From the NCBI RefSeq assembly GCF_053078305.1, contig NZ_CP166879.1: 64,000 bases of DNA; one strand, given 5' to 3'. The notes below the pieces were generated by a model. It was not told where the DNA came from and ran no database searches. It saw only the letters and a list, made by a program, of their open reading frames with translations. A program made the position numbers and the translations under genes. The first letter of the stretch is position 1, and each line of letters begins with the position of its first letter. Of this stretch, positions 45,149-63,757 are shown one piece after another.

Positions 45149-45191
45149 AGGGAGACAAAAAAAGCGCCCGCAGGAGGTTTAACGCTACTTA

Positions 45192-45253
45192 CTCCCCTTG
45201 ATGATTTGCTTATTTTTCAATGAGTAAATCAAAACAAGGGGAGCAAATAAGCA
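45192..45253. repeat. Interleaved inverted repeats immediately 3' of int: candidate prophage attL core / Int binding region
   Basis: CTCCCCTTG (45192-45200) and TGCTTATTT (45207-45215) are each repeated in inverted form as CAAGGGGAG (45235-45243) and AAATAAGCA (45245-45253). Confidence 0.4.
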
Positions 45254-45263
45254 CAAGTTACAA

Positions 45264-46256: not shown

Positions 46257-46325
46257 GATTAGCCCCTCCAACGGATAAATTAACCAAACACTCCCTGCGG
46301 GATGAAACCCGCTCGATGTGTAACG

Positions 46326-46673: not shown

Positions 46674-46774
46674 ACCACTAAAATCCTCGCAAAAGTGTCG
46701 TAATTTCGACATTAAACAAACCAAAACAAACCTTCATAAGGTGCAATAGGCGCACCTGTGCGAGAGGATAACAA

Positions 46775-47299: not shown

Positions 47300-47305
47300 T
47301 GAACG

Positions 47306-47701
47306 ATGAGCGGCAAAAATAAGTCAGAAAAAAACACAACCGTCCTTAAGCAGTTAAGCCTCCTGAAAGAGGAACACAAGGACGCCACGATACTGATGCA
47401 TCTGGAAGGCTCACCGAAAATAACAATCACAACAACCTATAGCGAGTTACACAAAGAGCTTGAAGGATTAATTAACTTTTGTTCAAAGCTAAAAGCGAAT
47501 GAAAACATTGATGACCTGATACTTAAACCAGAAGCAGAGTTCGGGCACTTTTGCGAAAGTAGAGAAAATGGATGCATCGGAATAATGCTATACGCAACCC
47601 GCGGAATAATGATTAATCTGCCCGTTGAGCAGGCTGTGGATATATTCGGAGAAATGGCACTTAATAAAACCACTATTTACAAAAGAAAAATGCCGGAGTA
47701 A
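47306..47701 (+). CDS. Hypothetical phage early protein (lower-GC moron candidate)
   Basis: 131-aa ORF starting 7 nt after the cox-like stop; GC ~40% by hand count against ~55-60% in the rest of the prophage. Confidence 0.5.
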   Translation: MSGKNKSEKNTTVLKQLSLLKEEHKDATILMHLEGSPKITITTTYSELHKELEGLINFCSKLKANENIDDLILKPEAEFGHFCESRENGCIGIMLYATRGIMINLPVEQAVDIFGEMALNKTTIYKRKMPE

Positions 47702-47714
47702 CCCGGCATGGTTA

Positions 47715-47909
47715 TTAGTATGTTGGTCCCTTAGAAAAGTTCCAGGAACTCTTGCGAGGGTATTTATGAAGTACTTTTTCGCGGACATCGTTAGCCAGAT
47801 CTCTGATTTGATCGTGCTTATCATCAGAAGACGGAGGAACTTCGGGGATTTTATCCACGATTTCAATTACTGATTTAAGCATTTTTATTAATTCATCGTC
47901 GTAAGACAT
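47715..47909 (-). CDS. Hypothetical small protein, reverse-oriented inside the early operon
   Basis: 64 aa from MSYDDELIKMLKS with a perfect AGGAG Shine-Dalgarno 6 nt upstream; convergent with the 47306 gene; lower GC. Confidence 0.5.
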   Translation of the reverse strand: MSYDDELIKMLKSVIEIVDKIPEVPPSSDDKHDQIRDLANDVREKVLHKYPRKSSWNFSKGPTY

Positions 47910-48016
47910 TGTTATCTCCTTTTTCTGGTTGTGTGGAAACACCAGAATACCACGCGCCGGGCGTGGTTAAACATCCCGGCACTGATTTTCATTTAACTTA
48001 AACGGGGTTTTCCGAT

Positions 48017-48355
48017 ATGACACAGCGACGCAGCTTCCGCACTGGCGCAGAACGCCACGCAGCCCGTTTCTCAACCAGCGCATCACGCAGCAACTCGCAC
48101 TACAGCCTGCAGGAAACGCACGCCACACCTGACGGGCATCCGGTTAAACAAACCGGTAAACACACCTGGCTGATTAATGATGCCGGAATTGTCATTCACC
48201 GGGGCGCACGCAACCCGATTACCGGAAATACCTGTTACTCCCTGACTCGCGGAGATGAGCAGTTCGGGCAGGATTTCACCCTGCACGAAGCATTAAGAAC
48301 GGCAGACCGGTTAATCAGCGGTCGCAGTTTTCAGCACCCGGAACATCGCCGCTGA
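48017..48355 (+). CDS. Hypothetical phage early protein
   Basis: 112-aa ORF in the early operon; no recognisable motif. Confidence 0.45.
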   Translation: MTQRRSFRTGAERHAARFSTSASRSNSHYSLQETHATPDGHPVKQTGKHTWLINDAGIVIHRGARNPITGNTCYSLTRGDEQFGQDFTLHEALRTADRLISGRSFQHPEHRR

Positions 48356-48374
48356 TAAATAAAAGGATTCAGCC

Positions 48375-48617
48375 ATGATCGAAGCCTACAAAATACTTAT
48401 TAATAATGCGTTGCAGCGTTATCACTTCGAACTCGCAAACCGGGGGGTAACCCGGGACGAAGGACTTCGTAACTCACTGCGGGGCGCAATTATGGGACTG
48501 TATAACTGCGCACTGGGCAGCGATGACCGCGAAGCACTGGAAGAATTAAAAGTTATTGTGGCCGAACTGTTTGAAGGTGAAATCGTTGAGCCTTATTTCA
48601 CAGAGGTGGCAGCATGA
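48375..48617 (+). CDS. Hypothetical phage early protein
   Basis: 80-aa ORF with AAGGAT Shine-Dalgarno; stop overlaps the next start (ATGA). Confidence 0.5.
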   Translation: MIEAYKILINNALQRYHFELANRGVTRDEGLRNSLRGAIMGLYNCALGSDDREALEELKVIVAELFEGEIVEPYFTEVAA

Positions 48618-48739
48618 GCGTATTTCTTTCATGGGTGATTCTGATTATTTCCGTGCTTATGGCGATTGGCATTATGCGAATTATCGAAGCGCTGAAAAAT
48701 ATCGAATCTTTATTTACTGGCGAAGAACGCCGTAAATAA
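48614..48739 (+). CDS. Small hydrophobic (single-TM) peptide, translationally coupled
   Basis: 41 codons MSVFLSWVILIISVLMAIGIMRIIEALKNIESLFTGEERRK; absent from the ORF track (<60 aa); ATGA overlap with the upstream gene. Confidence 0.4.
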   Translation: MSVFLSWVILIISVLMAIGIMRIIEALKNIESLFTGEERRK

Positions 48740-48818
48740 ATAACCAACCGGACAGAAAACATTAAAACCATCCGCATCTGCGGAGGGCTTCACTCAATCC
48801 AGAAACGGAGAAACAGCT

Positions 48819-49097
48819 ATGAGCACCAATACACCTACAGAAATAAACAAACTATTTACCGACCCGGCGCATATTGAATTGACGCAAAAAACGCTGACTG
48901 AAATAACCAATGTACTGGATGAAAGAATATCAGAAATAGATAAAGACAAGCATTTTGCTACTTACATGGCCCTGCAAATGCAAAGCATGGCAATGGTGAC
49001 AGCAAAACAGACCATCAGTGAACTCTATATGAAAAACCTGCGCCTTGAGCACGAACTGGCAGAACTCCGGGCACAGTCCGGCCAGTTTTCAGCGTGA
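48819..49097 (+). CDS. Hypothetical phage early protein
   Basis: 92-aa ORF with ACGGAG Shine-Dalgarno; helical C-terminus. Confidence 0.5.
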   Translation: MSTNTPTEINKLFTDPAHIELTQKTLTEITNVLDERISEIDKDKHFATYMALQMQSMAMVTAKQTISELYMKNLRLEHELAELRAQSGQFSA

Positions 49098-49108
49098 GGG
49101 GCAGGACG

Positions 49109-49360
49109 ATGAACAGCATATTTACCGCCACAAGACGAACCCTGCTGACGCATTTCACCGATGCCGCGGGCCGCGAATTCATGGTGGAAAGTTATTTAAT
49201 CACAACGACCACGCCGTGCCCGTCAGACGCTGATTATCTCTACATCCATCTGGCTGACGGAACACAAATCACCGCGATTGCCAGTACCGTTCGCGAAGTA
49301 ATGACCATCAGAGGGGCATGGAAATCAGAAACACAAGCCCACGGAGAGCTGCGGCCATGA
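49109..49360 (+). CDS. Hypothetical phage early protein
   Basis: 83 aa from MNSIFTATRR with GAGGGG Shine-Dalgarno; stop overlaps the next start. Confidence 0.5.
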   Translation: MNSIFTATRRTLLTHFTDAAGREFMVESYLITTTTPCPSDADYLYIHLADGTQITAIASTVREVMTIRGAWKSETQAHGELRP

Positions 49361-49569
49361 TCAGCAAGTACACCACCAACGCACGTAAACCCGGTAAAGA
49401 CGCACGCCACCACATCGCCGTACTCCGCAATCTGTTACTGGAGGAAATCGACGACTTCACGGCGACGCTGAGCGGTCCGGGCGCACCAGTAACACCAGGT
49501 GAGATCCACCGGGACCTTAAACGCCGTATTGAAAACGCCATTGATTACACCCTGAACCCGACCGAATAA
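49357..49569 (+). CDS. Hypothetical phage early protein
   Basis: 70 aa from MISKYTTNARKPGK; ATGA coupling to the upstream gene. Confidence 0.45.
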   Translation: MISKYTTNARKPGKDARHHIAVLRNLLLEEIDDFTATLSGPGAPVTPGEIHRDLKRRIENAIDYTLNPTE

Positions 49570-49595
49570 CCGGAACAGTAACGGAGGTTATCGCG

Positions 49596-50150
49596 ATGAG
49601 ACTTACACCAATGGGAATACCGGGCAAAGCCCCGGCACATGTGAAGGCGTGGACACAGCAGGAAGATCGGTTACTCATCTCGCTTTATCAGGAACACAAC
49701 ACACATCAGATGGCTGAACGAATTCAGCGAACCCGTAAAGCAGTTATGCACCGGATTCGTTTTTTACGTAATCGTGGGCTGATTGGCCGCAAGAGAAAAG
49801 CACCACTGAGTACAGAAGCCATAGCCTTTCTTATTAAAAACCGTCATGTAAAAACCGCACAGGAAATGGCTCTGGAAGTGGGATGTAGTGAGTGCACAGT
49901 GAGGTACACACTGCGTAAACGGGGTTACAACCTGAAAAAATGCGGTGAGAACCACCATTGCGCCAGATACAGCGATCATCTGGTTGAGCTGGTCACGGAG
50001 CTACGCGACATACACAACATGACGTTCTGCATGATCGCTGAACACATCAACAGCACGATACAGATGCACATTAACGACGATGCGGCGTTTCATCTCTACC
50101 ACCGCCGCACAGCGGCTGACGCCGCGCTCTGTGAACTGTTACCGGGCTGA
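49596..50150 (+). CDS. Putative DNA-binding early protein with two HTH-like segments
   Basis: 184-aa ORF with GGAGG Shine-Dalgarno; two helix-turn-helix-like stretches judged by eye; no family assigned. Confidence 0.5.
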   Translation: MRLTPMGIPGKAPAHVKAWTQQEDRLLISLYQEHNTHQMAERIQRTRKAVMHRIRFLRNRGLIGRKRKAPLSTEAIAFLIKNRHVKTAQEMALEVGCSECTVRYTLRKRGYNLKKCGENHHCARYSDHLVELVTELRDIHNMTFCMIAEHINSTIQMHINDDAAFHLYHRRTAADAALCELLPG

Positions 50151-50269
50151 GTGATCATCATGCACACACAAAAAAACCGCTTGCCATGCCGCAATCAGTC
50201 AGGTTACATTCCCACTGCACCTCATAAAACGGGTGCCGGGATTACCACCCCGCCGACTACACAAGCGCA

Positions 50270-50291
50270 CAACCGCGCCAGCGGTTTTTTT
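50270..50291 (+). terminator. Intrinsic terminator inside the prophage early region
   Basis: AACCGC-gcca-GCGGTT hairpin followed by TTTTTTT. Confidence 0.5.
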
Positions 50292-50470
50292 GTGCGTACT
50301 GTATCGCCACGTCTTTTTCGCGTCAGAATTATGGCGGGGCGTACGGGGCCGACTTCGGTCGGGCCGGGGTCTTGTGTAGCCGGTTGTGGTAACCCTGTAC
50401 GTCTCGCCACCCTGAGATTACCGCCTCGGGTTGGTGAGTTTTCACAACTTACTACACAAGGGGCCACACC

Positions 50471-50698
50471 ATGGCAAACCGCAAACAACAGCGCGTCCGC
50501 GCTGAGCGTCTTCACATCCGCACCGAAATCAACCGCAGACTCTGGCGCGCATCACGCGTCGCGCAAATCATGTACATCAACATGCTGCATGAACACGCAC
50601 ACGCGCTGTCAGACCGTTACTGTGCCGCCGTCTTCAGCTACCTGGCGGATGACCTGGCAGAGCTGCAGGACCTTATCAACCAGCAACACCACCACTAA
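50471..50698 (+). CDS. Hypothetical phage protein
   Basis: 75-aa ORF with AAGGGG Shine-Dalgarno; basic N-terminus, His-rich C-terminus. Confidence 0.45.
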   Translation: MANRKQQRVRAERLHIRTEINRRLWRASRVAQIMYINMLHEHAHALSDRYCAAVFSYLADDLAELQDLINQQHHH

Positions 50699-50766
50699 AC
50701 AACATCCTGAAGCCATCCCGCACCCGTGCGCGGGAGGCTTCCGCACGTCTGTTACCGGAGGTTCTC

Positions 50767-51189
50767 ATGAAGAACGTTAAGGGACTTTCAGATATTCAGG
50801 ATTTTTTTAACTGGATGTGGGCAGTGGATCCCCGGCTGGCTTCCCGCCTGAACGACTGGCACGACTATTACCGCCGCGCCTGTAAACAGGCCGCCAGACG
50901 CGTCACCACATACGGGGATTTCTCCTTCACCGTTGACGGCAGTTACCGCGTGGACGTGAAAGGCGATGGTGATGGTTTTGGTTTTGGTTTATTTCACATC
51001 AACGGAACCGACAGCACCGCCATCAGCTGGTCGTCGTCAGAGATGACGCTTGTTCTGGAAATGACAAACCACAGCGTGGCCGTGAAAGGTATATACACCG
51101 CAGAAGACTTTATCGGTGAATACCAGCGCCTTCTCGTGCTGTACCGGGCAGCGTTTCAGGCGGCAACTGCCGGGGAGTGCGACGCATGA
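50767..51189 (+). CDS. Hypothetical phage protein
   Basis: 140-aa ORF with GGAGG Shine-Dalgarno; stop overlaps the gpA start (ATGA). Confidence 0.5.
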   Translation: MKNVKGLSDIQDFFNWMWAVDPRLASRLNDWHDYYRRACKQAARRVTTYGDFSFTVDGSYRVDVKGDGDGFGFGLFHINGTDSTAISWSSSEMTLVLEMTNHSVAVKGIYTAEDFIGEYQRLLVLYRAAFQAATAGECDA

Positions 51190-53705
51190 GCGACCATAAC
51201 GCACAACTGGCGTACCCGTGGAACGCCCCGCTGCCGGTTATCGATCCTGAAACGTTCGGCAGAGCGCAACCAACCGCATTACGCCAGGCCATTCAGAGCT
51301 ACATCAACGAAGACATTCGCACTGACGCCAGACTGGATGAAGAAACCGTCGCCTTCCTGACAACCACAGACGAAGGGAAGCGAATTAATTCGCATCTTCA
51401 CCACGACGAAGAGCGTCGGATCAGACTGGAAAAACTGACGCGACACAAACGCGAAAATCCACCCACGCTGGTATCTGAAGCCATGGCAGAGCTGCGCGCC
51501 CTGCCGCCGTTTCTTGCCGGTCCGCTCATCCGTGACCTGGCCCGCCTGAGCCGCAAACAGGAGAGCGCACGCCGGGAAGGGCTTAAGAATAACAGCGCAT
51601 ATGCGGCGGATAACTTCGTTCGTCACGGCCTGCGTGCCCGCCTGAAACGTATCGCCCGTGTGAATGAACGCTTTGCCACCCCGGCCTTTAAGGCCACCGC
51701 CGCCCGCGAACGGCTGGATGAACTGCTTATGCTGCCGCAGCTGAGCCGTGACGAAATCCAGCGCCTTGCCACCCTGACCGCCACCGCGTTTTCCGCCGCA
51801 CTGGAGCGCGCATGTGATGAGGTCATCGAAAAGACCGGCAGGGGTGACGATGACCTGTTCACCTGGTTACTGACCTACCAGCCACTGGCACGCATGGCGT
51901 TAAAACTGGGTATCACACCACCCTGCTGGCCGTCGCTGGAAATCAGACCCGACCGCCGCACCGCCCCCGACCCGGAACAGGTGCCGGGTGCGGTCATGCG
52001 CCTTTCCTGTGCGACATGGTGGAACAGTCAGTTAAGACACCTCCGGGACATCTGGCGTGAAGAGCTGTTACGCGCCGCAGGTCTGGTGTCACGTAAGACA
52101 TCGGTATATATCAGCCATGAAGCGTTACTGGACTGGCGCGAAAAACGCCAGCGCACCCGCGATTTTCTGAAGGCCTGGGACATCGAGAACGAAGAGGGAG
52201 AACGGTTCAGCCTTGAGGATATCTACTGGGCAGGTCTCTCTAATCCGCGTAACCGCCGTAACGAGATGATGGCCTGCGTCCGGGGAATGGAGCAGGTCGC
52301 CGAAGCACGCGGCGACCTGGCGTTTTTCGTCACCGTCACAGCCCCTTCCCGTTTTCACAGCGTGAACGATGACGGCAGCCTGAACCCGAAATACTGCGGA
52401 GCAACGGTACGTGATGCCAGTGATTATCTGGTTTACCGCTTTTTCGCCGCCGTCCGCAGGGCCATCAACAAGGCCGGGCTGGGCTGGTACGGCGTGCGCA
52501 CAGTGGAGCCCCACCACGACGGTACACCGCACTGGCACATGCTGGTATTCACCAGCCCGGAAAACGAAGCCCGTATCACTGAAATCATGCGCAACGCCGC
52601 CATCAGGGAGGACCGCGCAGAGCTGGGTGATGATATCTCCCCGCGTTTTAAATGCGAAAAAATCGACCCGGCAAAAGGCACACCGGCGAGCTATATCGCG
52701 ACCTATATCGGTAAGAACCTGGACGCCAGCGCCTTCATGGGGAATGACCCGAAAACCGGCAAACCTTACGTCGATAAGGAATCAGGCAAAACCATGGCCG
52801 AAACCGTGGAGAACGCCATCGGCTGGGCGGCCCTTCACCGCATCCGCCAGTTCCAGTTCTTCGGTATCCCTCCCCGCCAGGTATGGCGCGAACTCCGCCG
52901 CCTTGCCGGGCAGATGGCCCGTAACCCGGCTGCCCCGCAGCGTCTGGACCATGACGACATTGACGCCATACTGGCCGCCGCCGACGTGGGATGTTTTGCC
53001 ACCTATATCACCCGCCAGGGTGGTGTGCTCATTCCCCGCAACACGTACCTGGTCCGCACCGCATACGAAACTGCCGAAGAGGCCAACGACTACGGCGAAT
53101 TCCCGCAACGCATTTACGGCGTCCGCGCCCCGTCACTCGGGGAGCGCTACACCATATGCACCCACCCGGACACCTGGAAACTGGTCAGACGTAAGCCGGA
53201 AAACGAAGACCGCACGGACGAGGGTTTTGACGTTGAGTGCGGCTTTGCCGCACCTTGGACTCGTGGCAATAACTGTCCCCCTGACCAGAATCTGACCATA
53301 AACGACCCGCCAGAAAGGCAGCCGGACGGACGCAGGGAGCAGCGACTTACCCTGCCGGAAGGTGATTTGGGTGAATGGTTAAGGTCACTGACCCCCACAG
53401 AGCGAAAACAACTCACCAGGCAGCTGAAAAACCCGCCACCTGACACGGAAACCGTGAAAAACGGCGGCATCAGTGCGCCCGCTGGCGGCGTTCGCGTGAG
53501 TGTCGCACTGACCGCTGAGCCACACATCACCGCACAAATCACCCGTGAGCTTGATGCGCTGGGCGTGCAGCTGCATGAAAGCGCCGTCGTTTCCGTCCGG
53601 CACGGTGCCCGCGTGCGCCTGGCTGACGGGCGCACCGCGTACTGGAATGACAGCACCCGCCGCATTGATATCACCCCCGCACCGAATACGGAGGCGCCAC
53701 AATGA
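51186..53705 (+). CDS. Rolling-circle replication initiator endonuclease (P2 gpA-like)
   Basis: 839 aa from MSDHNAQLAYPW (ATG with GGGGAG Shine-Dalgarno; the ORF track uses a GTG 9 nt upstream); HUH motif GTPHWHMLVF; size and position as in P2/186. Confidence 0.85.
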   Translation: MSDHNAQLAYPWNAPLPVIDPETFGRAQPTALRQAIQSYINEDIRTDARLDEETVAFLTTTDEGKRINSHLHHDEERRIRLEKLTRHKRENPPTLVSEAMAELRALPPFLAGPLIRDLARLSRKQESARREGLKNNSAYAADNFVRHGLRARLKRIARVNERFATPAFKATAARERLDELLMLPQLSRDEIQRLATLTATAFSAALERACDEVIEKTGRGDDDLFTWLLTYQPLARMALKLGITPPCWPSLEIRPDRRTAPDPEQVPGAVMRLSCATWWNSQLRHLRDIWREELLRAAGLVSRKTSVYISHEALLDWREKRQRTRDFLKAWDIENEEGERFSLEDIYWAGLSNPRNRRNEMMACVRGMEQVAEARGDLAFFVTVTAPSRFHSVNDDGSLNPKYCGATVRDASDYLVYRFFAAVRRAINKAGLGWYGVRTVEPHHDGTPHWHMLVFTSPENEARITEIMRNAAIREDRAELGDDISPRFKCEKIDPAKGTPASYIATYIGKNLDASAFMGNDPKTGKPYVDKESGKTMAETVENAIGWAALHRIRQFQFFGIPPRQVWRELRRLAGQMARNPAAPQRLDHDDIDAILAAADVGCFATYITRQGGVLIPRNTYLVRTAYETAEEANDYGEFPQRIYGVRAPSLGERYTICTHPDTWKLVRRKPENEDRTDEGFDVECGFAAPWTRGNNCPPDQNLTINDPPERQPDGRREQRLTLPEGDLGEWLRSLTPTERKQLTRQLKNPPPDTETVKNGGISAPAGGVRVSVALTAEPHITAQITRELDALGVQLHESAVVSVRHGARVRLADGRTAYWNDSTRRIDITPAPNTEAPQ

Positions 53706-54106
53706 CCCGCTTTTATTGCGCCATGCAGCGCCAGCGTTTTGACGAAATGATGCGCCAGCGCACGCCCTTACTGACCCTGAACAACATTGCCACGGGGCCA
53801 CAACCGGGCGATGAGCTGGAAATCACGGTCGTCAGTCCCGATCGCACCACCACGGCCATCATCACCGACATACTCAACGGACGACCGGACAGCACCAACC
53901 GCAGCTGGCTTGTCGCCGTTCGTCCGCGCCGTCCGCCCGGAGAGCCGGAGCCGCTCACGCCTGCCGGAAAAATCATGCGGCAGTACCACGAAGAGCAGGA
54001 ACACAAACACAACGCAGAACTGACCAGAACACTGGCATCGATTAACCGCAAAGCGGCAATTGCCCGCTATGTGCATTCAGCCGCAGGCAGACAATCACGC
54101 AGGTAA
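53702..54106 (+). CDS. Hypothetical protein, first gene of the accessory cassette after gpA
   Basis: 134-aa ORF; ATGA overlap with the gpA stop; ACGGAGG Shine-Dalgarno; Pro-rich central segment. Confidence 0.55.
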   Translation: MTRFYCAMQRQRFDEMMRQRTPLLTLNNIATGPQPGDELEITVVSPDRTTTAIITDILNGRPDSTNRSWLVAVRPRRPPGEPEPLTPAGKIMRQYHEEQEHKHNAELTRTLASINRKAAIARYVHSAAGRQSRR

Positions 54107-54154
54107 ACAAAGACCATGAACATAACCAGAAACAGCCAACTAAAGGAGCGCACC

Positions 54155-54325
54155 ATGAACAGCACCAGGAGGATCAGCGACAGAGAGCTTACGAAAATGA
54201 TTGAGTCGGCACAGCAGCTGCTTTCACGACAAAACCCGGTCGTGGAAGAAACATGGTGGGAGAATTTACTGGCAGCACTGACCGAACTCCGGGAACGCCG
54301 GAACAACGAAGGAGCCGCCAAATGA
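54155..54325 (+). CDS. Hypothetical small helical protein
   Basis: 56 aa from MNSTRRISDRELTKM with AAGGAG Shine-Dalgarno; the ORF-track start at 54116 lacks one. Confidence 0.45.
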   Translation: MNSTRRISDRELTKMIESAQQLLSRQNPVVEETWWENLLAALTELRERRNNEGAAK

Positions 54326-54648
54326 AGACCCCAGGAATGACCGGAAAGGAAATCATTTTACGCTACCTGGAAACGCACACACGTTTCAGCGCCCCAGAAC
54401 TGGTAGAAAAACTGGGCGTGAAAAGAACCGTCATTAATCAGGCCGCCGGGAAAATGGTACGGGAAGGCCTGCTGGTTGTGGATGGATACACGGACAAGAT
54501 AACGCATTACCGGAAGCCAACGGAAAAGGAACGACAGGAACTGGCGCAACGGGCTGAACGGCAGCAGGAAAAATCAGTCATCGAAGCCTGCAAGCGCAGC
54601 GAAATCATGAAGCGAATTCTGTTTATCTACGGCGCTGCATTCCGTTAA
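54322..54648 (+). CDS. Putative winged-helix DNA-binding protein
   Basis: 108 aa MKTPGMTGKEIILRYLETHTRFSAPELVEKLGVKRTVINQAAGKMVREGLLV...; ATGA overlap with the upstream gene; AAGGAG Shine-Dalgarno. Confidence 0.5.
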   Translation: MKTPGMTGKEIILRYLETHTRFSAPELVEKLGVKRTVINQAAGKMVREGLLVVDGYTDKITHYRKPTEKERQELAQRAERQQEKSVIEACKRSEIMKRILFIYGAAFR

Positions 54649-54661
54649 AGGAGCTGGTGAG

Positions 54662-54688
54662 TCGGGGCAAAAATTCTTTTTGCCCCGG
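54662..54688. terminator. Bidirectional terminator between the accessory cassette and the ogr-like gene
   Basis: Perfect palindrome CGGGGCAAAAA-ttc-TTTTTGCCCCG. Confidence 0.7.
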
Positions 54689-54713
54689 CGAAGCAGCAGA
54701 CAAGCGAAGCGCG

Positions 54714-54977
54714 TCAGGAACGCCGCGACAGTAGTTCAAGCGCATACCGGCGATCTTCCGGGCGCATGGCATCAACAAGAAACTTCACCATATTGCGACC
54801 GGAGCGGGCGCCGGGGCTGAGGGTATGGGAAAAGGTCATCGTACAGACGAAGGTGTGCCCGCATTCGACATCACTGCATGCACAGTACAGATCCGCAAGT
54901 TCAGGGGTTTTCCAGTCTGTCTTCCGGATGACAGCAGGTGCGCCACAGTCAGGACACCGGGCTTTAAAAATCCGCAT
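54714..54977 (-). CDS. Ogr/Delta-family zinc-finger late-gene transcription activator
   Basis: 87 aa from MRIFKARCPDCG...YCACSDVECGHTF, matching the remembered Ogr pattern CPxC...YxCxNxxCxxTF; GGGAGG Shine-Dalgarno. Confidence 0.75.
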   Translation of the reverse strand: MRIFKARCPDCGAPAVIRKTDWKTPELADLYCACSDVECGHTFVCTMTFSHTLSPGARSGRNMVKFLVDAMRPEDRRYALELLSRRS

Positions 54978-55014
54978 CTTACCTCCCGATAACACGTATC
55001 CCGGGGAAGACATT

Positions 55015-56067
55015 TTACCCGACCGGCACCACTTTTTCTTCCGCCACATGCCCGGCTTCCACATCAAAACGAAGATAAAGGTGTTCCGGTATATCGGGAT
55101 CGCTGTTCACGGCGTTCATGATTTTACGCTGAAGCGGTATCACCTCATCCTTGCGGTACGTTTCACGCGTCGTTTCCGGGTTAGGGATGGTGGCCCCGTT
55201 CGTGGGGATGATCCCCGCAAGACCGGCAGGAAAGCGGTGTGCCGTAAACACATCCTGGGCGCTGATCCCCTTGATGTTTGAAAATTCATCCTTGGCGCTC
55301 ACCTCACCAATCGGAATAATTTTCACCCCATCCGGCGAACCTTTGGGGATGTTGATGTACAGATTGCGGAAATTTCCCAGCCCCTTAGACTCCGCCACCT
55401 TCTCGCGGATCTCATCCTCCATCTCCGTGGTGATCCCAGGGTCGTTCGTATACAGCAAAAAGCCCATATGCGCCCCGTTGTTGTAGTAACGGCGACGAAA
55501 AAGGCTGGCCTCGCTGTTCAGCAGCGCCGAGTGAATGCCACCGATATAATCCGGCAGCCCGTAAATTTGCTGACGCGGATCATACATCCGCAGAAAGATA
55601 ATATCTTCCGGCGTATAGACCAGCGCGGGACCTTCCTGAAGCACCACGAACTCACCGGTTTTGCGGCGCCGGAGATACAGCGACGGAAGCGGCTCAAGTG
55701 CCACGACGTCGCCGAATACGTTACGCACCTTGAGCAGGGCGAGATCGCCGAACAACAGGTAGTCAAATACCGCCTGTTCCATCTGGTCCGTTGTGAGGCC
55801 ACCACCGGTATAGCCCCCCGCCACCATGTTACGGCGGGCATACAGCACCCCACCGTGCTGGGCGTTAAGGTTCGGGAGCTGCGCCAGTGCCAGGCGGTTA
55901 ATCGGCAGCTGCCAGTGGTTGTGTTCGTTGTCATACCAGATGTTATGGTAGTCCGTGCCGGTGGTCAGCACCGGTTCCGGCTGACCAAACGTGATTGTGC
56001 TGCCACGTGCGGGCGTGAATGCTTTTTTCGTCACGCGTGACGTTTTGTTTCTGCGTTTCTTGCTCAT
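55015..56067 (-). CDS. Portal protein (P2 gpQ-like)
   Basis: 350 aa from MSKKRRNK, ATGA-coupled to the terminase stop; size and position as P2 Q. Confidence 0.75.
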   Translation of the reverse strand: MSKKRRNKTSRVTKKAFTPARGSTITFGQPEPVLTTGTDYHNIWYDNEHNHWQLPINRLALAQLPNLNAQHGGVLYARRNMVAGGYTGGGLTTDQMEQAVFDYLLFGDLALLKVRNVFGDVVALEPLPSLYLRRRKTGEFVVLQEGPALVYTPEDIIFLRMYDPRQQIYGLPDYIGGIHSALLNSEASLFRRRYYNNGAHMGFLLYTNDPGITTEMEDEIREKVAESKGLGNFRNLYINIPKGSPDGVKIIPIGEVSAKDEFSNIKGISAQDVFTAHRFPAGLAGIIPTNGATIPNPETTRETYRKDEVIPLQRKIMNAVNSDPDIPEHLYLRFDVEAGHVAEEKVVPVG

Positions 56068-57890
56068 GCGGCTTTCCCGAAGGCCCATGTGGACGGGCGT
56101 TCATAGTCATAATCTACAGGCTCATTAATCACGGCGTGCGAAATGGCAAAAAACACATCCGCATGCCCCGTAACATCCGACCGTTCCGCCACGAACGTCA
56201 GCGCGTTACCGCTTTTTGTGGTGGTGCGGCGTATGGACATGAACGACGCGGGGATCTCCGTGCGTTCACGGCTGGCCTCATCAATGGCGTCTTTCGCCCA
56301 CTCGATACGCTTATGGGCCACCACGTCTATCATTTTCATCACCAGGCGGTTTTTGCTCTCCACGCTGTAAAGAATGGCGTTAGCCTCACGTGGCGCAAAG
56401 CGACTGACGATATCAAACACCCCTTTCCCGATACCGGTGATATCTATGCCGATATAGGTAATGTTAAAGCGCTGCATCAGTTCGCGGATCTGATCGGCCT
56501 GCCAGGTGAAGTTAAATCCCTGCCACTGCCAGACGGCGAGTACACGGAACCGCTCGCCCTCATGGACAGGCGGAGCCACAATCACAAACGTGGAATTATC
56601 CCCGGACCTTGACGGGTCAAAGCCCGCCCATACCTCACGATTGCCGAACGGACGTGCCGCCGTGGGATCGTAGTCACCCCACGTCTCCATCTCCACCTCG
56701 CACCTGACCAGTTCGGAGAACTTAAATACCGCATCCTTGCTGTCAACAAACTCGCAGCCGTACAGCATCGCATAGGTGGTCGGGTTGTAGCGGTTCCTGA
56801 TACGTTCAATATCAACCCGTGCAGACAGGCCACCCGCCACCGCCTCTTCCAGCCGGATAATGTAGCGCCAGATCCCGTCAGGGCATTCACAGCCCACACG
56901 CATCGCGCTTTCTTTCGGAAACTCAACCGCACGACGCGCCGGGTCATCCCCGCGCCAGTCGTCACCATTCCAGACCAGATAAGCCTGGTGGGTTTTGGCG
57001 CTGGGTGTGGAAAAATACGTCGTGCGGTATTTGTCGTGGGTCGCCATTGCCGAGGCCACTTCATGCAGTCGCGTGAATTTTGGGATCCAGAACACCTCAT
57101 CGCCGTAAAGGTGGCCGTTAAATCCCTGGGCGGTGCTGACATTGGTGGACAGGAAGCGCAGCATTGCACCATTGCTCAGACGGATATGCTTACCCGTGAG
57201 CGTGATCCCAAACTGCAGGGCGAAGTTAATAATATATTCACGAAAGATTTCCGCCTGTACCCGTGACGCAGAAAAGAAAATCTGGTTATCACCGGTCACC
57301 ACCGCATCTTCGAACGCTTCCCATGCAAAATACCAGGTCATGCCGATCTGGCGGCTCTTGAGGATGAAACGGCGCTCACGGTGCCGGTTCTCGCGGCAGT
57401 GCAGCTGGTAGGCATAAAGATTTTTACGCGCCCATTCATCCAGCATTTCAGCAGTCAGTCCGGAAACGTCGTTTTTCCGGTAGCGCCGCTTTTTCCCTTC
57501 TCCCCCGCCGCAGGTCCCCGCAGCCGCGCCGTCCTCATACCCTGCCGGACGCAGGGCGGCAATTTCCGCCATCCTTTCAGCGTGTTTGTTTTTCTGGGCG
57601 ATGATCTTCACGTGCTGCGCGATAAGTTCACGCAGTTCGGCAAGTTCACACTCTGTCTTGCCCTCCCGTCCGGTCAGCACATCAATACGCCGGGCGATCA
57701 CGTCCTCAACGGATTCAGCGGGCAGCAGGGCGGCCCACTGCCCCACATCACACCAGTGGTAAACCGTGCGCGGCGGAATACCGAGTTCCGCCGCAATATC
57801 GCGGGGGTGCCACCGCTTCAGGTAAAGCGATCGCGCCGCCTCTTTGATTTCGTCAGAATATTTAGCCATGCGCCCATTATGGCGGCGCAT
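56064..57890 (-). CDS. Terminase large (ATPase) subunit (P2 gpP-like)
   Basis: 608-aa ORF directly upstream of the portal gene, divergent from the scaffold/capsid genes as in P2; exact start uncertain. Confidence 0.8.
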   Translation of the reverse strand: MRRHNGRMAKYSDEIKEAARSLYLKRWHPRDIAAELGIPPRTVYHWCDVGQWAALLPAESVEDVIARRIDVLTGREGKTECELAELRELIAQHVKIIAQKNKHAERMAEIAALRPAGYEDGAAAGTCGGGEGKKRRYRKNDVSGLTAEMLDEWARKNLYAYQLHCRENRHRERRFILKSRQIGMTWYFAWEAFEDAVVTGDNQIFFSASRVQAEIFREYIINFALQFGITLTGKHIRLSNGAMLRFLSTNVSTAQGFNGHLYGDEVFWIPKFTRLHEVASAMATHDKYRTTYFSTPSAKTHQAYLVWNGDDWRGDDPARRAVEFPKESAMRVGCECPDGIWRYIIRLEEAVAGGLSARVDIERIRNRYNPTTYAMLYGCEFVDSKDAVFKFSELVRCEVEMETWGDYDPTAARPFGNREVWAGFDPSRSGDNSTFVIVAPPVHEGERFRVLAVWQWQGFNFTWQADQIRELMQRFNITYIGIDITGIGKGVFDIVSRFAPREANAILYSVESKNRLVMKMIDVVAHKRIEWAKDAIDEASRERTEIPASFMSIRRTTTKSGNALTFVAERSDVTGHADVFFAISHAVINEPVDYDYERPSTWAFGKAA

Positions 57891-58035
57891 CCGGCCCGCA
57901 TTCAGGCAGAAAATTTCGGCTGTGTTCGGCTATCCCGCGTTATCCGAAGACAGCCGAATTCAGCCAGTAGCCCCCCGCTGTAAAAATCCCGACACTCACC
58001 GGAGTTCTTCAGATTTTCACGTAAAAGAGGCCACG

Positions 58036-59085
58036 ATGCCGCAGCCAACGTTGATGACCGACTGGATATGTATCGCCACATCAGGACCGACCGTTGACGG
58101 CCGCGAAATTGATCCGCAGTGGCTGACTGATGCCGCTGAAACCTATTCCCGCAACACCTACACGGCGATGCTGTGGCCCTGGCATGAGGAAGAAATCGGA
58201 CACCGCCAGTACACCAGTAATCTGGGTGAAGTGGACTCACTGAAAGCGGAAACCGGCGAGGACGGTAAAACCCGCCTCTACGCACGGCTGGTCCCTAACC
58301 AGTACCTGATTGAAGCCAACAGACTGGGGCAGAAGCTGTTCACATCCGCCGAGATAGTGGAGAACTTCGCCCGGAGCGGACGCGACTATCTCCTGGGCGT
58401 GGCGGTGACGGATATCCCCGCCAGTCTGGGGACGGAAAAAATCCGCTTCACCCTGAACAACGAGGAATACACGGCACAGCGGGCGAACTGCCAGACGTTC
58501 ACGCTGGGCAGCCTGTCACCGGACACCTCCCCGCCCCCCCGTAAACCTGAATCATTCCTGAAACGCCTGTTCAGCGCAGGACAGACCGACAACACCGACA
58601 CCAGTAAGCCTGATACAGGCGAGGACGCAAAAATGGACGAAATTAAAGCACTGCTTGAAAAGCTGATCACCCTGGTGGAAGGCGGCAGCGCCGCTGCCGC
58701 TGGCGAGGGCACAGCAGACACACCGGAAGAAGCAAAAGCCGAAGTCGCGGAAATCGCCGCCGAAATCGCCGATGCCGCCGCAGAGGTGGCAGAACTGGCA
58801 GAAGAAGTGGAAGCCGCCCCGGAAGATGAGGTTAAGGCTGAAGCCTTCAGCGCCGCGAAAGCGAAGCTGGAAGACGCGATTAAAGCGTTCAGTGCCATCA
58901 CACCGGAAAAAGGCGAACGTTACCGCCGCTTTGCCGCCCGTCGCCGGGACGACACCGACAAAGAAGAAATCAAAGCTATTGCCGAAAAACTTAACGACCT
59001 GACCACGAAGCTGTCAGCAACCGGCATCACGCCACGACCGGCTGGCACACCGGCAGAAAGCGAAAAACCGTTTGACTTTGTTTAA
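58036..59085 (+). CDS. Capsid scaffolding protein (P2 gpO-like)
   Basis: 349 aa from MPQPTLMTDW with AAGAGG Shine-Dalgarno; LLGVAVTDIPASLGTE resembles P2 gpO LVGLAVTDDPASLGTE; Ala/Glu-rich helical C-terminal half. Confidence 0.75.
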   Translation: MPQPTLMTDWICIATSGPTVDGREIDPQWLTDAAETYSRNTYTAMLWPWHEEEIGHRQYTSNLGEVDSLKAETGEDGKTRLYARLVPNQYLIEANRLGQKLFTSAEIVENFARSGRDYLLGVAVTDIPASLGTEKIRFTLNNEEYTAQRANCQTFTLGSLSPDTSPPPRKPESFLKRLFSAGQTDNTDTSKPDTGEDAKMDEIKALLEKLITLVEGGSAAAAGEGTADTPEEAKAEVAEIAAEIADAAAEVAELAEEVEAAPEDEVKAEAFSAAKAKLEDAIKAFSAITPEKGERYRRFAARRRDDTDKEEIKAIAEKLNDLTTKLSATGITPRPAGTPAESEKPFDFV

Positions 59086-59096
59086 GGACACGCAAC

Positions 59097-60125
59097 ATGC
59101 AACTGAACCAGAAAACCGAATCACTGCTTCGTAAGTACGCTGCCGGACTGGGCGCGGCAAACGGGGTTGACGACGTCACACGCTATTTTGCGCTGTCTGA
59201 CCCGAAGGAGACCGCGCTGCGTGACGCCATCATGCACTCCGACGAGTTTTTATCAAAACTGCCGAACGTGCTGGATGTTGAACAGGTGACAGGCCAGGTG
59301 GTTACCACCGGCGTTCCGGGCCTCCATACCGGACGTAAAAAAAATGCCCGTTTCACCCTTCCGCTGGGTGTTACCGGGAATGAATACAAGCTGGCTGAAA
59401 CCGATTCCGGTGCCCACCTCCTGTACACCACACTGGTCACCTGGGCAAACGCAGGCGGTGAAAACGAGTTCTTTAACCGCATTCAGAATTTTGTTAACAG
59501 ACAGATCGCGCTGGATATCCTGCGCATCGCCTTTAACGGTACCAGCGTGGCCGAAGATACCGACCCGGTAACCAACAAAAACGGCGAGGACGTCAACACC
59601 GGCTGGCATGCCATCGTCAAAGGCCGCAGCGCAAAACAGATCGTGGAGGCTGGCCCGACGCTGGGCAAGGGTGGCGACTTTATCGGGCTGGATGCAGCCG
59701 TGGCAGACCTCGTGCACACCCTCATTGATGAGTCGTATCGCGGTCATCCGGATCTGGTGGTACTGGTTGCGCCCGATCTTGTGGCACAGGACAAGGTGAC
59801 GCTGCTTAACGCCATCGACGCCCCCACGGAAAAAGTGGCCGCGCAGCTTATCGGTCGCCAGATCGCCGGGCTGACAGCATACACCCCGCCGTTCATGCCG
59901 GAAGGACGCCTGATTGTCACCACGCTGGCAAACCTTCACATCTACACGCAGCGCGGCACCCGTCAGCGCCGTGCGGAGTGGAACGACGATCGCAAGCGTT
60001 TTGAAAACAACTATCTGCGCATGGAAGGTTACGCCGTGGAGCACGACGAAATTTACGCGGCCTACGACAAGCTGACCATCAAGGGCGCAGAAGCGGCAGA
60101 AGAGCCCGCATCTGGCGGCGCATAA
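59097..60125 (+). CDS. Major capsid protein (P2 gpN-like)
   Basis: 342-aa ORF; GKGGD...LDA and HPDLVVLV motifs resemble P2 gpN; position after the scaffold gene. Confidence 0.8.
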   Translation: MQLNQKTESLLRKYAAGLGAANGVDDVTRYFALSDPKETALRDAIMHSDEFLSKLPNVLDVEQVTGQVVTTGVPGLHTGRKKNARFTLPLGVTGNEYKLAETDSGAHLLYTTLVTWANAGGENEFFNRIQNFVNRQIALDILRIAFNGTSVAEDTDPVTNKNGEDVNTGWHAIVKGRSAKQIVEAGPTLGKGGDFIGLDAAVADLVHTLIDESYRGHPDLVVLVAPDLVAQDKVTLLNAIDAPTEKVAAQLIGRQIAGLTAYTPPFMPEGRLIVTTLANLHIYTQRGTRQRRAEWNDDRKRFENNYLRMEGYAVEHDEIYAAYDKLTIKGAEAAEEPASGGA

Positions 60126-60142
60126 GCACAGAGGGCGGCGCA

Positions 60143-60841
60143 ATGACACCCTGCCAGCGACACCGGGCGAAAATCCGCACACAGGAGGCACTCGAACGCC
60201 GGGAGGCGCTGACGGCCTCCCCGGTCAGCTTCCACCTGTTACGCGCGGAGCTTGATCGCGATGTGGCACGGCTGCGCAGTCTTCCGGTCCGTGAAGAGCG
60301 GCTGGCGTTCAAGCGCGACATTCTCCTGCCGCGCTGGCTGCCCGTCGCGGAGCGCTATATCGCTGACGGAAAGCGCCACGCCTGCCCGGTACTGGTGTAC
60401 TGCATCATCTGGCTGTTCGACACGGGCGACCTGAGTCGCGCCCTTGACTGGGCAGACATTGCCATCAGTGAAGGCCAGGCCACGCCGGACAACTTCCGCA
60501 GCACCCTGCCCGCCTTCGTGGCAGACACGGTGCTGCAGTGGGCCACCGACAACAGCGAGGCCGGACACAGCATAGAACCGTATTTTTCGCGCACCTTCAG
60601 GAACGTCACCACCTCGTGGCGGCTGCATGAGGAAATCCGCGCGAAGTGGTTCAGATTTGCCGGGCTGTATCTTCTGCGCGACGAGGCGGGCAAACCGAGA
60701 GCCACCGCGATTAATGATACTGCCGTACTGGAAAAGGCAGACGCATACCTGGCACAGGCGGCAGCACTGAGCCGTACCGCTGGCGTAAAAAGTATCAGGG
60801 CGCGCATCAGGGCACGCATCAGCGCCCTTAATGCAGCGTAA
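60143..60841 (+). CDS. Terminase small (endonuclease) subunit (P2 gpM-like)
   Basis: 232-aa ORF after the capsid gene with AGAGGG Shine-Dalgarno; gene order. Confidence 0.7.
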   Translation: MTPCQRHRAKIRTQEALERREALTASPVSFHLLRAELDRDVARLRSLPVREERLAFKRDILLPRWLPVAERYIADGKRHACPVLVYCIIWLFDTGDLSRALDWADIAISEGQATPDNFRSTLPAFVADTVLQWATDNSEAGHSIEPYFSRTFRNVTTSWRLHEEIRAKWFRFAGLYLLRDEAGKPRATAINDTAVLEKADAYLAQAAALSRTAGVKSIRARIRARISALNAA

Positions 60842-60948
60842 ACGACTACCCGCAGGGCCGGGCGGGCGCGGGAGGAGGCATCAGTGACGGAAACTGTATG
60901 GCCGTGGAATCCCGGACAGCCCGCCTTTTTATTCATATGAGGCACGTC

Positions 60949-61422
60949 ATGAGCGAACCGAGCTTCAGCGTCAGCGGTAAACCGCTGAAATCCACACCGC
61001 AGACGGTGACAAACGGCGAGCCGTTCTGGCCGGACCTTAATCTGGCTGAGCTTCAGGGGTCACGCACGCTTCCGGCTGATTTACCCGACGACACGGCGGC
61101 CATGGCGCTACTTGCCGCAGTGGCCGAGGTAAACACCACGCTGGCGCCGGTTGTGGCGCACTGGAAGGCGCAGGGGCATGAACGCGCCGCAGACGTACCG
61201 GGGGCCAGGCTGGGCGATGAAACCCAGCTGGTCGCACAGTACAAAAAGGCCGTTTATGCCCGTGCCAAGGCCGATCTTATGGGCGAGTTCGCCACCATTG
61301 GTCGCCGTGAAACCTATCCGGGGCAGGAAAGCGAGGACACACGCGCCACCTTACTGGCTGAAGCCTCGCTGGTCATGCGTAACATGCTGGGGCACAGACG
61401 CGCGGGAGTGCACATTATATGA
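60949..61422 (+). CDS. Head completion/stabilisation protein (P2 gpL-like)
   Basis: 157 aa from MSEPSFSVSG; WPDLNLAEL...AVAEVN...YKKAVYARA resembles remembered P2 gpL. Confidence 0.65.
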   Translation: MSEPSFSVSGKPLKSTPQTVTNGEPFWPDLNLAELQGSRTLPADLPDDTAAMALLAAVAEVNTTLAPVVAHWKAQGHERAADVPGARLGDETQLVAQYKKAVYARAKADLMGEFATIGRRETYPGQESEDTRATLLAEASLVMRNMLGHRRAGVHII

Positions 61423-61892
61423 ACCAGCTGGAAAGCCTGACCGCCTTCATTACCGAAAATCTGCCGCCTGACGCCATGCAGTTCTTCATGAGCAGTCAGG
61501 AAGACGCGCAGCTTATCCGCAGTCAGAAGGCGCTGGGTAACGACCAGATCCGCATGGGCGTGATGACGTACACCGGCGTGATTGCATGGGATAACTTCCC
61601 GTTCCGCAAATACTCACCGGGGCTGGTTTACGCGCTGGTCATGGCCTGGCTGGAAGAGCACGCGGACCCGCTGAGGGAGGAATTCCGCCCGGAGGATGTG
61701 AACGTCGACCCGCAGTTTAACGATGAGGACTCGTGCCTTCTCGATATCACGGTGGGACTGGCTGACCCGCTGATCATCCGGGTTCAGGAAGACGGCCCCG
61801 TTCCGTACAGGGGGAAACGCTGGACACTGGTTAACCCTGAAATCTGGACGGCGGAAACCATGGATCTGTTTGTCAGCAGGAGCCGCGAATGA
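61419..61892 (+). CDS. Putative tail completion protein (gpR-like)
   Basis: 157-aa ORF ATGA-coupled to gpL; weak by-eye resemblance to P2 gpR (LVYALVMAWLEEHADP). Confidence 0.4.
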   Translation: MNQLESLTAFITENLPPDAMQFFMSSQEDAQLIRSQKALGNDQIRMGVMTYTGVIAWDNFPFRKYSPGLVYALVMAWLEEHADPLREEFRPEDVNVDPQFNDEDSCLLDITVGLADPLIIRVQEDGPVPYRGKRWTLVNPEIWTAETMDLFVSRSRE

Positions 61893-62599
61893 TAAGCGGC
61901 CAGCTGAACCCGCAGCAGCTGGCAGAAGCACAGGCGATGCTTCAGTCGCTGGATCTGCCCCCGAAAAAACGCCGTCGCCTGTTATGGCGTATTGCCCGGC
62001 ACGGCATTATCGCCGCTGCCAGACGCCATCAGCGCGATCAGGCCGCACCGGACGGTACAGCATGGGCACCCCGGAAACGCGGTAAGGGGAAAATGTTCAG
62101 AAAGCTGCCGCGTCTTCTGGCGGTCCGTGAGATGCCCGGACAGGATGCCGTAAAGGTTTATTTCCGTAACGGCAATCACACCAGTGGCAGGAGCCGCATC
62201 AGTGCCGGTGCCGTGGGCTGGGTTCACCACAACGGCGCAGAAATCCGGGTCAGTGCTGACAGCTTCAGCGGTCAGGACCAGAACGGGCAGACCGCCACCC
62301 GCCGACAGGCAAAACGACTGCGGGAGCTGGGCTTTAAGGTACGCCAGAAGGGGCGCTGGCGGAAAGCATCCATGAAATACCTGTTAACGCTTTCGCGGGC
62401 GCAGGCCGGGTTGCTGATCACCATTATGGAAGATCAGATTATCGCCGGACCACGCCAGCAGAAGGCCCGGACATGGACCATTACCCTTCCGTCGCGCGTC
62501 TTTCTGGGGGTAACAAACGAAGAATTTTCACACATCCTGGCACGCCAGATGAACGCAATGGGCTACGGCCTGGACGTTGACGCACAGGATATCAGATAA
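61889..62599 (+). CDS. Putative virion morphogenesis / tail completion protein (gpS / Mu G-like)
   Basis: 236-aa ORF ATGA-coupled to the upstream gene; position in the head-tail joining module. Confidence 0.4.
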   Translation: MISGQLNPQQLAEAQAMLQSLDLPPKKRRRLLWRIARHGIIAAARRHQRDQAAPDGTAWAPRKRGKGKMFRKLPRLLAVREMPGQDAVKVYFRNGNHTSGRSRISAGAVGWVHHNGAEIRVSADSFSGQDQNGQTATRRQAKRLRELGFKVRQKGRWRKASMKYLLTLSRAQAGLLITIMEDQIIAGPRQQKARTWTITLPSRVFLGVTNEEFSHILARQMNAMGYGLDVDAQDIR

Positions 62600-62610
62600 G
62601 GAGTCACACC

Positions 62611-63756: not shown

Positions 63757-63757
63757 C

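Follow-up and report, generated by a model that had tools for sequence, protein, structure and literature searches.

Why does a gene for an Ogr-type zinc-finger protein lie directly behind the portal gene of a P2-like prophage, when the ogr gene of P2 itself is found next to attP, and what might its product do from there? The locus that raises the question is part of a stretch of E. coli DNA of 64,000 nucleotides (the window) taken from contig NZ_CP166879.1. A first, sequence-only reading had interpreted the arrangement as a rearranged regulatory layout, closer to some 186-like or hybrid relatives of P2. Coordinates of the features concerned are collected in Table 1.

Table 1. Features of the ogr-like locus and of the late control region (positions are those of the window)
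Feature	Position	Strand	Description
Conserved hairpin, then GGCGAAGCAGCAGACAAGC	54663-54687, then 54687-54705		Probable cos, 8 nt past the stop codon of the ogr-like gene
ogr-like gene (RefSeq WP_001217942.1)	54714-54977	minus	87-aa Cys4 zinc-ribbon protein, K139 Orf13 subfamily of Ogr/Delta
Shine-Dalgarno GGGAGG	54982-54987	minus	4 nt ahead of the ogr-like ATG; read from the sequence
TAAAAT hexamer	55012-55017	minus	Overlaps the portal stop; candidate -10 of the ogr-like gene's own promoter
Portal gene, Q homologue	55015-56088	minus	Pfam Phage_portal PF04860; RefSeq 'phage portal protein'
Large terminase gene, P homologue	56064-57869	minus	Pfam Terminase_6N/6C/Terminase_5; first gene of the leftward late unit P-Q-ogr
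CATAAT hexamer	57876-57881	minus	Candidate -10 for late transcription of P, 6 nt ahead of its ATG
Four-half-site dyad	57913-57960	none	Candidate activator operator common to the divergent P and O promoters
TAAAAAT	57981-57987	plus	Putative -10 element for rightward late transcription of O and the head, tail and lysis genes behind it
Capsid scaffold gene, O homologue	58036-59085	plus	Opens the late cluster that runs rightward; in RefSeq 'GPO family capsid scaffolding protein'

The claim that the gene encodes an Ogr-type zinc finger holds. Its 87-residue product, with the N-terminus MRIFKARCPDCG... (opening residues also given as MRIFKARCPDCGAPAVIRK), matches the whole of the Pfam Ogr_Delta model PF04606 (positions 1-47 of 47) with 57.4 bits and E=1.3e-15, above the gathering cutoff of 26.3 bits. 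In MAFFT alignments of 9 and of 32 sequences, both including P2 Ogr, 186 B and P4 Delta, residues C8, C11, C34 and C39 occupy invariant columns together with the zinc ligands C4, C7, C30 and C35 of Ogr, and the spacing CX2CX22CX4C is that of Ogr and aligns with B and Delta. PHROG 603 is common to the window protein, P2 Ogr and K139 Orf13. The setting is that of the family as well, i.e., a small stand-alone protein of a P2-like phage encoded among genes for a GPA replicase, portal, terminase, GPO scaffold and P2-family capsid. With one domain, 87 aa and a complete phage as its source, the window protein is not of the P4 Delta type: Delta also carries the Ogr-type zinc-finger domain (23 % identity to the window protein) but is a protein of 166 aa made of two tandem Ogr-like halves and encoded in the satellite operon sid-delta-psu. 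Against the NCBIfam P2 Ogr equivalog model NF007241, the window protein scores 19.2 bits, below the cutoff of 116, whereas P2 Ogr itself reaches 177.6 bits; functional equivalence to Ogr would therefore be a matter of family and not of orthology. At the level of sequence, the ORF is thus confirmed as a genuine member of the Ogr/Delta family and of its K139 Orf13 subfamily. RefSeq already names the product 'ogr/Delta-like zinc finger family protein', and this annotation is correct.

The details of the earlier description are accurate too. The ATG (54975-54977) follows the portal stop TAA (55015-55017) on the same strand after a spacer of exactly 37 nt, and the gene has a GGGAGG Shine-Dalgarno sequence of its own; only the orientation needs correcting, the gene being on the minus strand. 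SD-like GGAG or GGGA elements precede the same MR(V/I) start in the relatives. The suggested search for a second ogr-like gene turned up none: an HMM built from the family alignment, run against six-frame translations of the window and of the entire prophage of strain 2013C-3033, recovers this ORF as the only family match (E=2e-37), the next match having E=0.5.

The protein is 25 % identical to both P2 Ogr and 186 B, as against 43-60 % to its closest relatives. The latter were identified by tblastn in a phage collection, where 130 records match and the best matches, over their full length, are those of the Vibrio phages K139 and Kappa (Longwoodvirus), Aeromonas phage phiO18P (Bielevirus), Cronobacter phage ESSI-2 (with its E. 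coli relatives, Seongnamvirus), the Salmonella phages SI7, SW3 and SW5 (Irrigatiovirus) and Yersinia phage vB_YenM_324. A scan of IMG/VR added at least 566 relatives. K139 Orf13 and the homologues of Smhb1, phiO18P, ESSI-2, SI7/SW3 and YenM_324, which measure 83-89 aa, form one subfamily with the window protein (PMC8537503). Full-length similarity, the YCAC, ECGHTF and SHTLSPS motifs, an extra cysteine (Cys32) and a helical C-terminus are shared throughout, and Y31, C32, G40-V44, H51 and P55 are nearly invariant in the 32-sequence alignment. What the window protein has to itself is its C-terminal tail, ..ELLSRRS, which is unlike that of the K139 group.

The sequence-only reading had also noted a C-terminal extension of about 15 aa relative to P2 Ogr. 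The excess is real (87 aa versus 72 aa), but it is not a pure C-terminal tail: about 4 of the 15 additional residues are N-terminal and about 11 lie past the last cysteine, mostly as an internal block of some 10 residues (RSGRNMVKFL) that is missing from the P2 and 186 proteins in the 32-sequence alignment. K139 Orf13 and the phiO18P protein have 83 aa each, and all 42 distinct subfamily proteins retrieved from IMG/VR fall between 85 and 89 aa; to judge from these lengths, the greater size is the norm for the K139 Orf13-type subfamily. P2 tolerates truncation of the Ogr C-terminus, which makes variation at this end unsurprising.

An AlphaFold model computed from the 32-sequence alignment (mean pLDDT 86.4, about 95 across residues 11-50) predicts a zinc ribbon of three strands (14-24, 27-34 and 42-48), with helices 60-70 and 73-85 behind it. 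In this model the additional block of about 10 residues is the first C-terminal helix, which P2 Ogr lacks, and the two helices together form a C-terminal hairpin. The structure searches turned up no solved member of the Ogr/Delta family and no significant match to it, either by sequence or by fold; the sole sensible, albeit weak, fold match is the DNA-binding zinc ribbon of NrdR (prob 0.98, E 0.46).

The prophage that carries the gene starts at about 45.2 kb of the window, with a GC content of 55-61 % compared with about 50 % in the flank. Megablast places it between dmsA and serS of E. coli, a host and site that distinguish it from the K139 group, and at least 80 % of positions 44000-64000, the stretch that holds the window's prophage part, is present in 10 of 5,426 complete genomes. 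Integrase, repressor, Cox and small early genes come first, then a GPA-type replication endonuclease (PF05840, E=2e-106) and a MarR-like gene; next come the ogr-like, portal and terminase genes, which are on the other strand, and after them O, N, M, L and the genes for tail completion, sheath, tube, lysis, tape measure, baseplate and fibres. Gene for gene, this is the order of Vibrio phage K139, and it differs from that of P2. In K139, a small orf14 lies between Q and orf13, whereas the window has the 37-nt spacer only. As part of the overall explanation given below, and with the same good confidence, the prophage is taken to be a K139/HP1-type (non-Peduovirus) member of the Peduoviridae.

How the late genes of such a phage may be controlled is best seen in the 166-bp spacer (57870-58035) from which P and O diverge. 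Anchored on the P start codon, this region aligns without gaps across genera, and the CATAAT hexamer is conserved in ungapped register in all lineages compared. Its distance of 6 nt from the P ATG would put the transcription start at the A of the ATG itself, so that a leaderless P mRNA is predicted; a precedent exists in P2, where gene V is annotated with a start site at its own first base. On the other side, relatives have A/T-rich -10-like elements at the place matching TAAAAAT, and O transcription is predicted to start near 57993. A recognisable -35 element was found at neither late promoter.

Between the two candidate promoters lies an 18-nt inverted repeat, TTCGGCTGTGTTCGGCTA (57915-57932) and TATCCGAAGACAGCCGAA (57941-57958), which can be written TTCGG-N5-TTCGG-N14-CCGAA-N5-CCGAA. 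Its inner pair, TTCGG-N14-CCGAA (57925-57948), is flanked 10 bp farther out by the outer half-sites (57915-57919 and 57954-57958). A TTCGG-N13/14-CCGAA dyad between P and O is common to the K139 group, compared with which the outer half-sites of the window are unusually perfect. The perfect inner dyad occurs once in the 64-kb window, once in the 50-kb prophage locus and once in the 33-kb K139 genome, always in the P-O spacer. Among 59 unique IMG/VR loci, 30 have a spacer site with at most one mismatch (N13 or N14), which always ends 55-56 nt ahead of the P start codon; site density amounts to 2.9/kb in the P-O spacers versus 0.027/kb in the rest of the loci, a 110-fold enrichment. About half of the 59 loci are SI7-like, and there the left half TTCGGTTA is kept in register while the right inner half-site is degenerate. 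A position weight matrix of the P-O control region picks out one site per genome (score 15-32, next unrelated position at most 1.1) and none in P2. The record of Haemophilus phage HP2 describes, at the same place, a 56-bp repeat that 'most likely contains promoters for late genes', and this repeat, GGATATCTTCGGATATAG...CTATATCCGAAGATATCC, carries the same half-site. The dyad is absent from P2, 186 and P4, and no secondary operator sites were detected elsewhere in the prophage, in K139 or in P2.

Late promoters of the form TGT-N12-ACA upstream of P and O, which the sequence-only reading had suggested looking for, did not materialise: the P-O spacer contains no exact match. The test is a weak one, because the annotated activator sites of P2 and 186 read TGT-N12-CCA and themselves fit the pattern only at one mismatch. 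With one mismatch allowed, a single match appears in the spacer (57979), overlapping the predicted O -10, which is about chance level. Whereas P2 has four late promoters with TGT-N12-CCA-type boxes, no TGT-N12-(A/C)CA box is present near -55 in the window, where a single, different conserved dyad occupies the position. Relative to the predicted start sites, the centre of the dyad (57936.5) would be at about -56/-57 for O, close to the centre of the P2 Ogr site at -55/-56, and at -67.5 for P. The geometry is therefore asymmetric.

We infer from its conservation and position that the dyad is the operator of the K139-type activator. Binding of the Ogr-like protein to it is a prediction, and the TTCGG half-site is wholly unlike the boxes of P2 and 186; together with the degenerate right half of the SI7-like loci, this leaves some room, perhaps a quarter of the weight, for a different view, according to which the dyad has a function in packaging or replication, or binds another factor, be it Cox, the MarR-like phage protein or a protein of the host, while the Ogr-like protein acts elsewhere or through an unrecognised site. 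However, no other non-coding element of the late control region is strongly conserved, and the dyad is located upstream of two promoters without -35 elements, roughly where Ogr sits in P2. Moreover, from Haemophilus to E. coli phages it is found together with the K139-type protein, and it is missing from P2, 186 and P4. The literature searched contained no experimental work on K139-type operators.

Taken further, the operator assignment leads to a more general and more tentative proposal, to which we give slightly less than even weight: K139/HP1-type Ogr homologues would read one TTCGG/CCGAA dyad per genome, unlike the TGT-N12-CCA boxes, and from it drive both divergent late operons, the terminase mRNA being leaderless and the C-terminal hairpin mediating tetramer-like binding. 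If this is true, the whole late programme hangs on one bidirectional switch with built-in positive feedback.

The ogr-like gene also seems to have a promoter of its own. Of 69 unique upstream sequences, 65 have TAAAAT at a distance of 32-42 nt from the ATG, and it is found in three reading-frame phases, non-coding contexts included. Being kept irrespective of frame, it is presumably a DNA signal, most simply a -10 element, although no conserved -35 partner accompanies it. In three loci the hexamer lies in a hairpin loop. A simple sigma-70 scan of 54200-58300 called no promoter on the minus strand, and missed both TAAAAT and CATAAT because neither has a -35 partner. Terminator-like matches in the same scan stayed at chance level, and the stretch from P to the ogr-like gene showed none on the minus strand; late transcription from P should consequently read into the latter. 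No Ogr-type dyad was seen upstream of TAAAAT. The immunity region carries GTGTCG(A/T)AAT repeats, of which no convincing copy was found upstream of the ogr-like gene, so that direct repression in the style of 186, where the promoter of B is repressed by CI, is not supported.

The same short region bears on the choice of the start codon. At 55011-55013, within TAAAATG, an upstream ATG in the same frame overlaps the stop codon of portal. From it, a 99-aa form translationally coupled to portal could be made, the frame being open still farther upstream (117-aa ORF); the regulators of SW3, ESSI-2 and YenM_324 are annotated as such long forms overlapping the portal stop (ATGA), and many loci have an upstream in-frame ATG. 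We nevertheless consider it improbable that this is the real product. A strong GGGAGG precedes the MRIFK start, the MR(V/I) N-terminus is conserved whereas the peptide ahead of it shows no conservation of length, sequence or phase, and the K139 and phiO18P homologues do without any extension. RefSeq likewise calls the 87-aa form, in which the Pfam domain begins at residue 7. On these comparisons the 87-aa start is favoured, and start codons in several phage records are probably mis-set.

In the scheme that emerges for the 87-aa protein, a weak, activator-independent promoter (TAAAAT, over the portal stop) would supply the first molecules of the Ogr-like protein. These would bind one bidirectional control region, the four-half-site dyad between P and O, and thereby switch on both of the late promoters that lack a -35. 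Transcription from P would then read through Q into the ogr-like gene and close a positive feedback loop. The records of P2 and 186 show an activator promoter of its own and a terminator common to the activator transcript and the late operon, and in P2, too, the activator gene is the last of a late transcription unit; the combination of own promoter and late-operon read-through would hence be the design of P2 and 186 at another map position. Dyad binding, transcription starts and the feedback loop are deduced here from conservation and position. As a whole, the gene is very probably the single Ogr/Delta late activator of a K139/HP1-type prophage, the last gene of a P-Q-ogr unit in its standard position, with its own promoter, the P-O dyad and read-through feedback.

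That the product is the phage's late activator is, on family membership and gene context, almost certain. It is true that the protein is not a P2 Ogr equivalog and that its ribbon weakly resembles the repressor NrdR in fold and sequence, as might be expected of a zinc-ribbon regulator with another role, e.g., a repressor or a factor in helper/satellite cross-talk. Such a role is quite unlikely, however: the protein is the only family member in the prophage, its gene ends the late operon as in P2 and 186, late promoters without a -35 need an activator, and the tested members of the family, Ogr, B (a C4 zinc-finger late activator) and Delta, are all activators according to record annotations and established knowledge.

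There remains the position of the gene. The statement that P2 ogr sits at the opposite end of the genome, beside attP, was right: in the P2 record ogr (24036-24254) directly follows the tail gene D and adjoins attP/int, while Q (187-1221) is found beside cosL. In the window, the ogr-like gene instead comes after portal Q, next to a cos-like block, and not after D. The layout is not 186-like either, since gene B of 186 (20609-20827) also follows D and adjoins attP, the same slot as P2 ogr. In all of the best-matching phages from the tblastn search, the homologue follows portal directly, in the same orientation, and faces the replication module, and Haemophilus phage HP2 and Pseudomonas phage phi3 have a homologue in the same slot after portal Q, although these Ogr-like ORFs lack annotation in both records. 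P, Q and the ogr-like gene are contiguous in 76 of the 80 best IMG/VR loci (of at least 566 relatives); in the other four, an insert of about 3 kb separates Q from the ogr-like gene. For K139 and Smhb1 the position after Q has been stated in print (PMC8537503). Judged by these gene orders, it is the standard, published position of the K139/HP1-type lineage and not a rearrangement, and P-Q-ogr is the ancestral-looking standard order of the lineage to which the prophage belongs.

The idea that the phage is a P2/186-like hybrid or product of rearrangement, its ogr transferred from the vicinity of attP to that of portal, is suggested by the contrast with P2 but can be set aside as highly improbable, given that 186 has the P2 position and not that of the window, that the P-Q-ogr order recurs in at least seven other Peduoviridae genera besides the IMG/VR loci, that the whole genome order and the degree of protein identity point to K139, that DNA similarity to P2 or 186 is absent from positions 53700-56200 apart from the cos-like block common with Xuanwuvirus, and that neither nesting within the P2/186 Ogr clade nor recombination breakpoints flanking 54714-54977 are seen. 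A third map position is known from P2-like phages of Burkholderia (KS5, KL3 and phiE202), whose Ogr proteins are family members matching the N-terminal 57 residues and whose ogr genes precede the replication genes, within the early/regulatory region (PMC3091744). The map position of ogr thus differs between Peduoviridae lineages: P2 and 186 have the gene after D, the K139/HP1 type after Q, and the Burkholderia phages in the early region.

The block bordering the ogr-like gene on its 3' side is probably the cos region. In window positions 53700-56200, the only DNA similarity to phage records is a 74-bp stretch (54646-54719) that is 93 % identical to Xuanwuvirus (P88-like) DNA, where it is sited between the last early ORF and the portal stop. 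Of 5,426 E. coli genomes, 1,110 contain it, in most cases where a P88-like prophage has its portal end. The hairpin contained in it shows a compensatory A/T swap in the stem in P88, and the succession of hairpin and GGCGAAGCAGCAGACAAGC matches the right-end hairpin of P2 and its cos GGCGAGGCGGGGAAAGCAC. In alignment with P2 cos, this architecture (a hairpin, then GGCGA...) and 10 of 19 bases are all that the two have in common, so that the cos assignment is no more than probable. If it is correct, the linear map of the phage would begin with cos, the ogr-like gene, Q and P.

The position of this gene is accordingly ordinary for its lineage, annotated in RefSeq and described in print. Some novelty may lie in the operator and promoter model, drawn from conservation, and in the few annotation gaps noted in public records. 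For the family, the corrected view is that the position of ogr depends on the lineage, and the locus offers a concrete, testable operator/promoter model for the poorly studied late switch of K139/HP1-type phages.

Adjacent to the ogr-like gene lies a 74-bp block that is 93% identical in DNA sequence to P88-like (Xuanwuvirus) phages, while no DNA similarity to these phages was found in the remainder of the searched stretch (53700-56200). The block is carried by 1110 of 5426 E. coli genomes and contains a hairpin directly followed by GGCGAAGCAGCAGACAAGC, which resembles the hairpin and cos arrangement of P2. In addition, the stop codon of the abutting gene falls at an identical position within the block, although this gene is the ogr-like gene in the window and the portal gene in P88. 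The block is probably a shared cos module. On its other side, the final gene of the early strand (54253-54648, +) converges with the ogr-like gene across the block; its MarR/winged-helix-like product gives weak Pfam matches and is named "MarR family transcriptional regulator" in RefSeq.

Coordinates of sequence features in the window and of regulator genes annotated in related phages
Feature	Record	Position	Strand	Remark
Immunity region	window	46655-46711		early promoter candidate TTGACA-17-CTAAAAT and direct repeats
Cos-like block	window	54646-54719		74 bp; DNA match to P88-like (Xuanwuvirus) phages
Hairpin inside cos-like block	window	54663-54687		compensatory change in P88
TAAAAT hexamer	window	55012-55017	-	overlaps portal stop codon
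CATAAT	window	57867-57881 (stretch)	-	exactly 6 nt 5' of P start codon
"Transcriptional regulator" CDS	SW3 (L007)	5941-6267
"Transcriptional regulator" CDS	ESSI-2 (L006)	4950-5270
"Transcriptional regulator" CDS	YenM_324 (L008)	5947-6267

Two short motifs are candidate promoter elements. The hexamer TAAAAT is kept in 65 of 69 unique sequences, 32-42 nt 5' of the ogr-like ATG and in three frame phases, and is a candidate -10 element that is not accompanied by a conserved -35; in three loci having an insert after the portal gene Q, it is located in the loop of a hairpin. The spacing between CATAAT and the start codon of the large terminase gene P is the same in all lineages compared and predicts that the P mRNA would be leaderless. 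In P2, it is the V gene that is annotated as leaderless.

There is a weak resemblance between the zinc ribbon of the Ogr-like protein and the DNA-binding ribbon at the N-terminus of NrdR, a repressor. Neither comparison reached significance, be it the predicted structure (model mb598786001eb) against 9fvr_D in Foldseek (rmsd 2.2 over 49 columns, prob 0.98, E 0.46) or P2 Ogr (L004 24036-24254) against TIGR00244 (E 0.0034). Ogr-like ORFs directly 3' of the portal gene are absent from the public annotation of Haemophilus phage HP2 (AY027935, L093; 3495-3734) and Pseudomonas phage phi3 (L094; 3501-3734). Moreover, the regulators of SW3, ESSI-2 and YenM_324 are annotated from the portal stop, about 20 codons upstream of another ATG. 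The location of the Shine-Dalgarno, together with conservation of MR(V/I) at the N-terminus, suggests that this downstream ATG is the true start.

In the immunity region, the direct repeats AGTGTCGAAT / AGTGTCGTAAT are probably repressor operators; no copy of them was found near the ogr-like gene. Strain 2013C-3033 carries three genes of the Hok/Gef family beyond the window, in the interval from the end of the prophage to serS (L001 48241-49579).

In four IMG/VR relatives (L052, L056, L057 and L059), an insert of ~2.7-3.6 kb separates the portal from the ogr-like gene, and their Ogr-like proteins begin with MSRNLK... instead of MRVFK. In the P88-like prophage of E. coli 1162invT2 (L096 6141-6665), the portal gene is set apart from the cos-like block by a 525-nt hypothetical gene, which shows that the cos-Q slot accepts cargo in another lineage.
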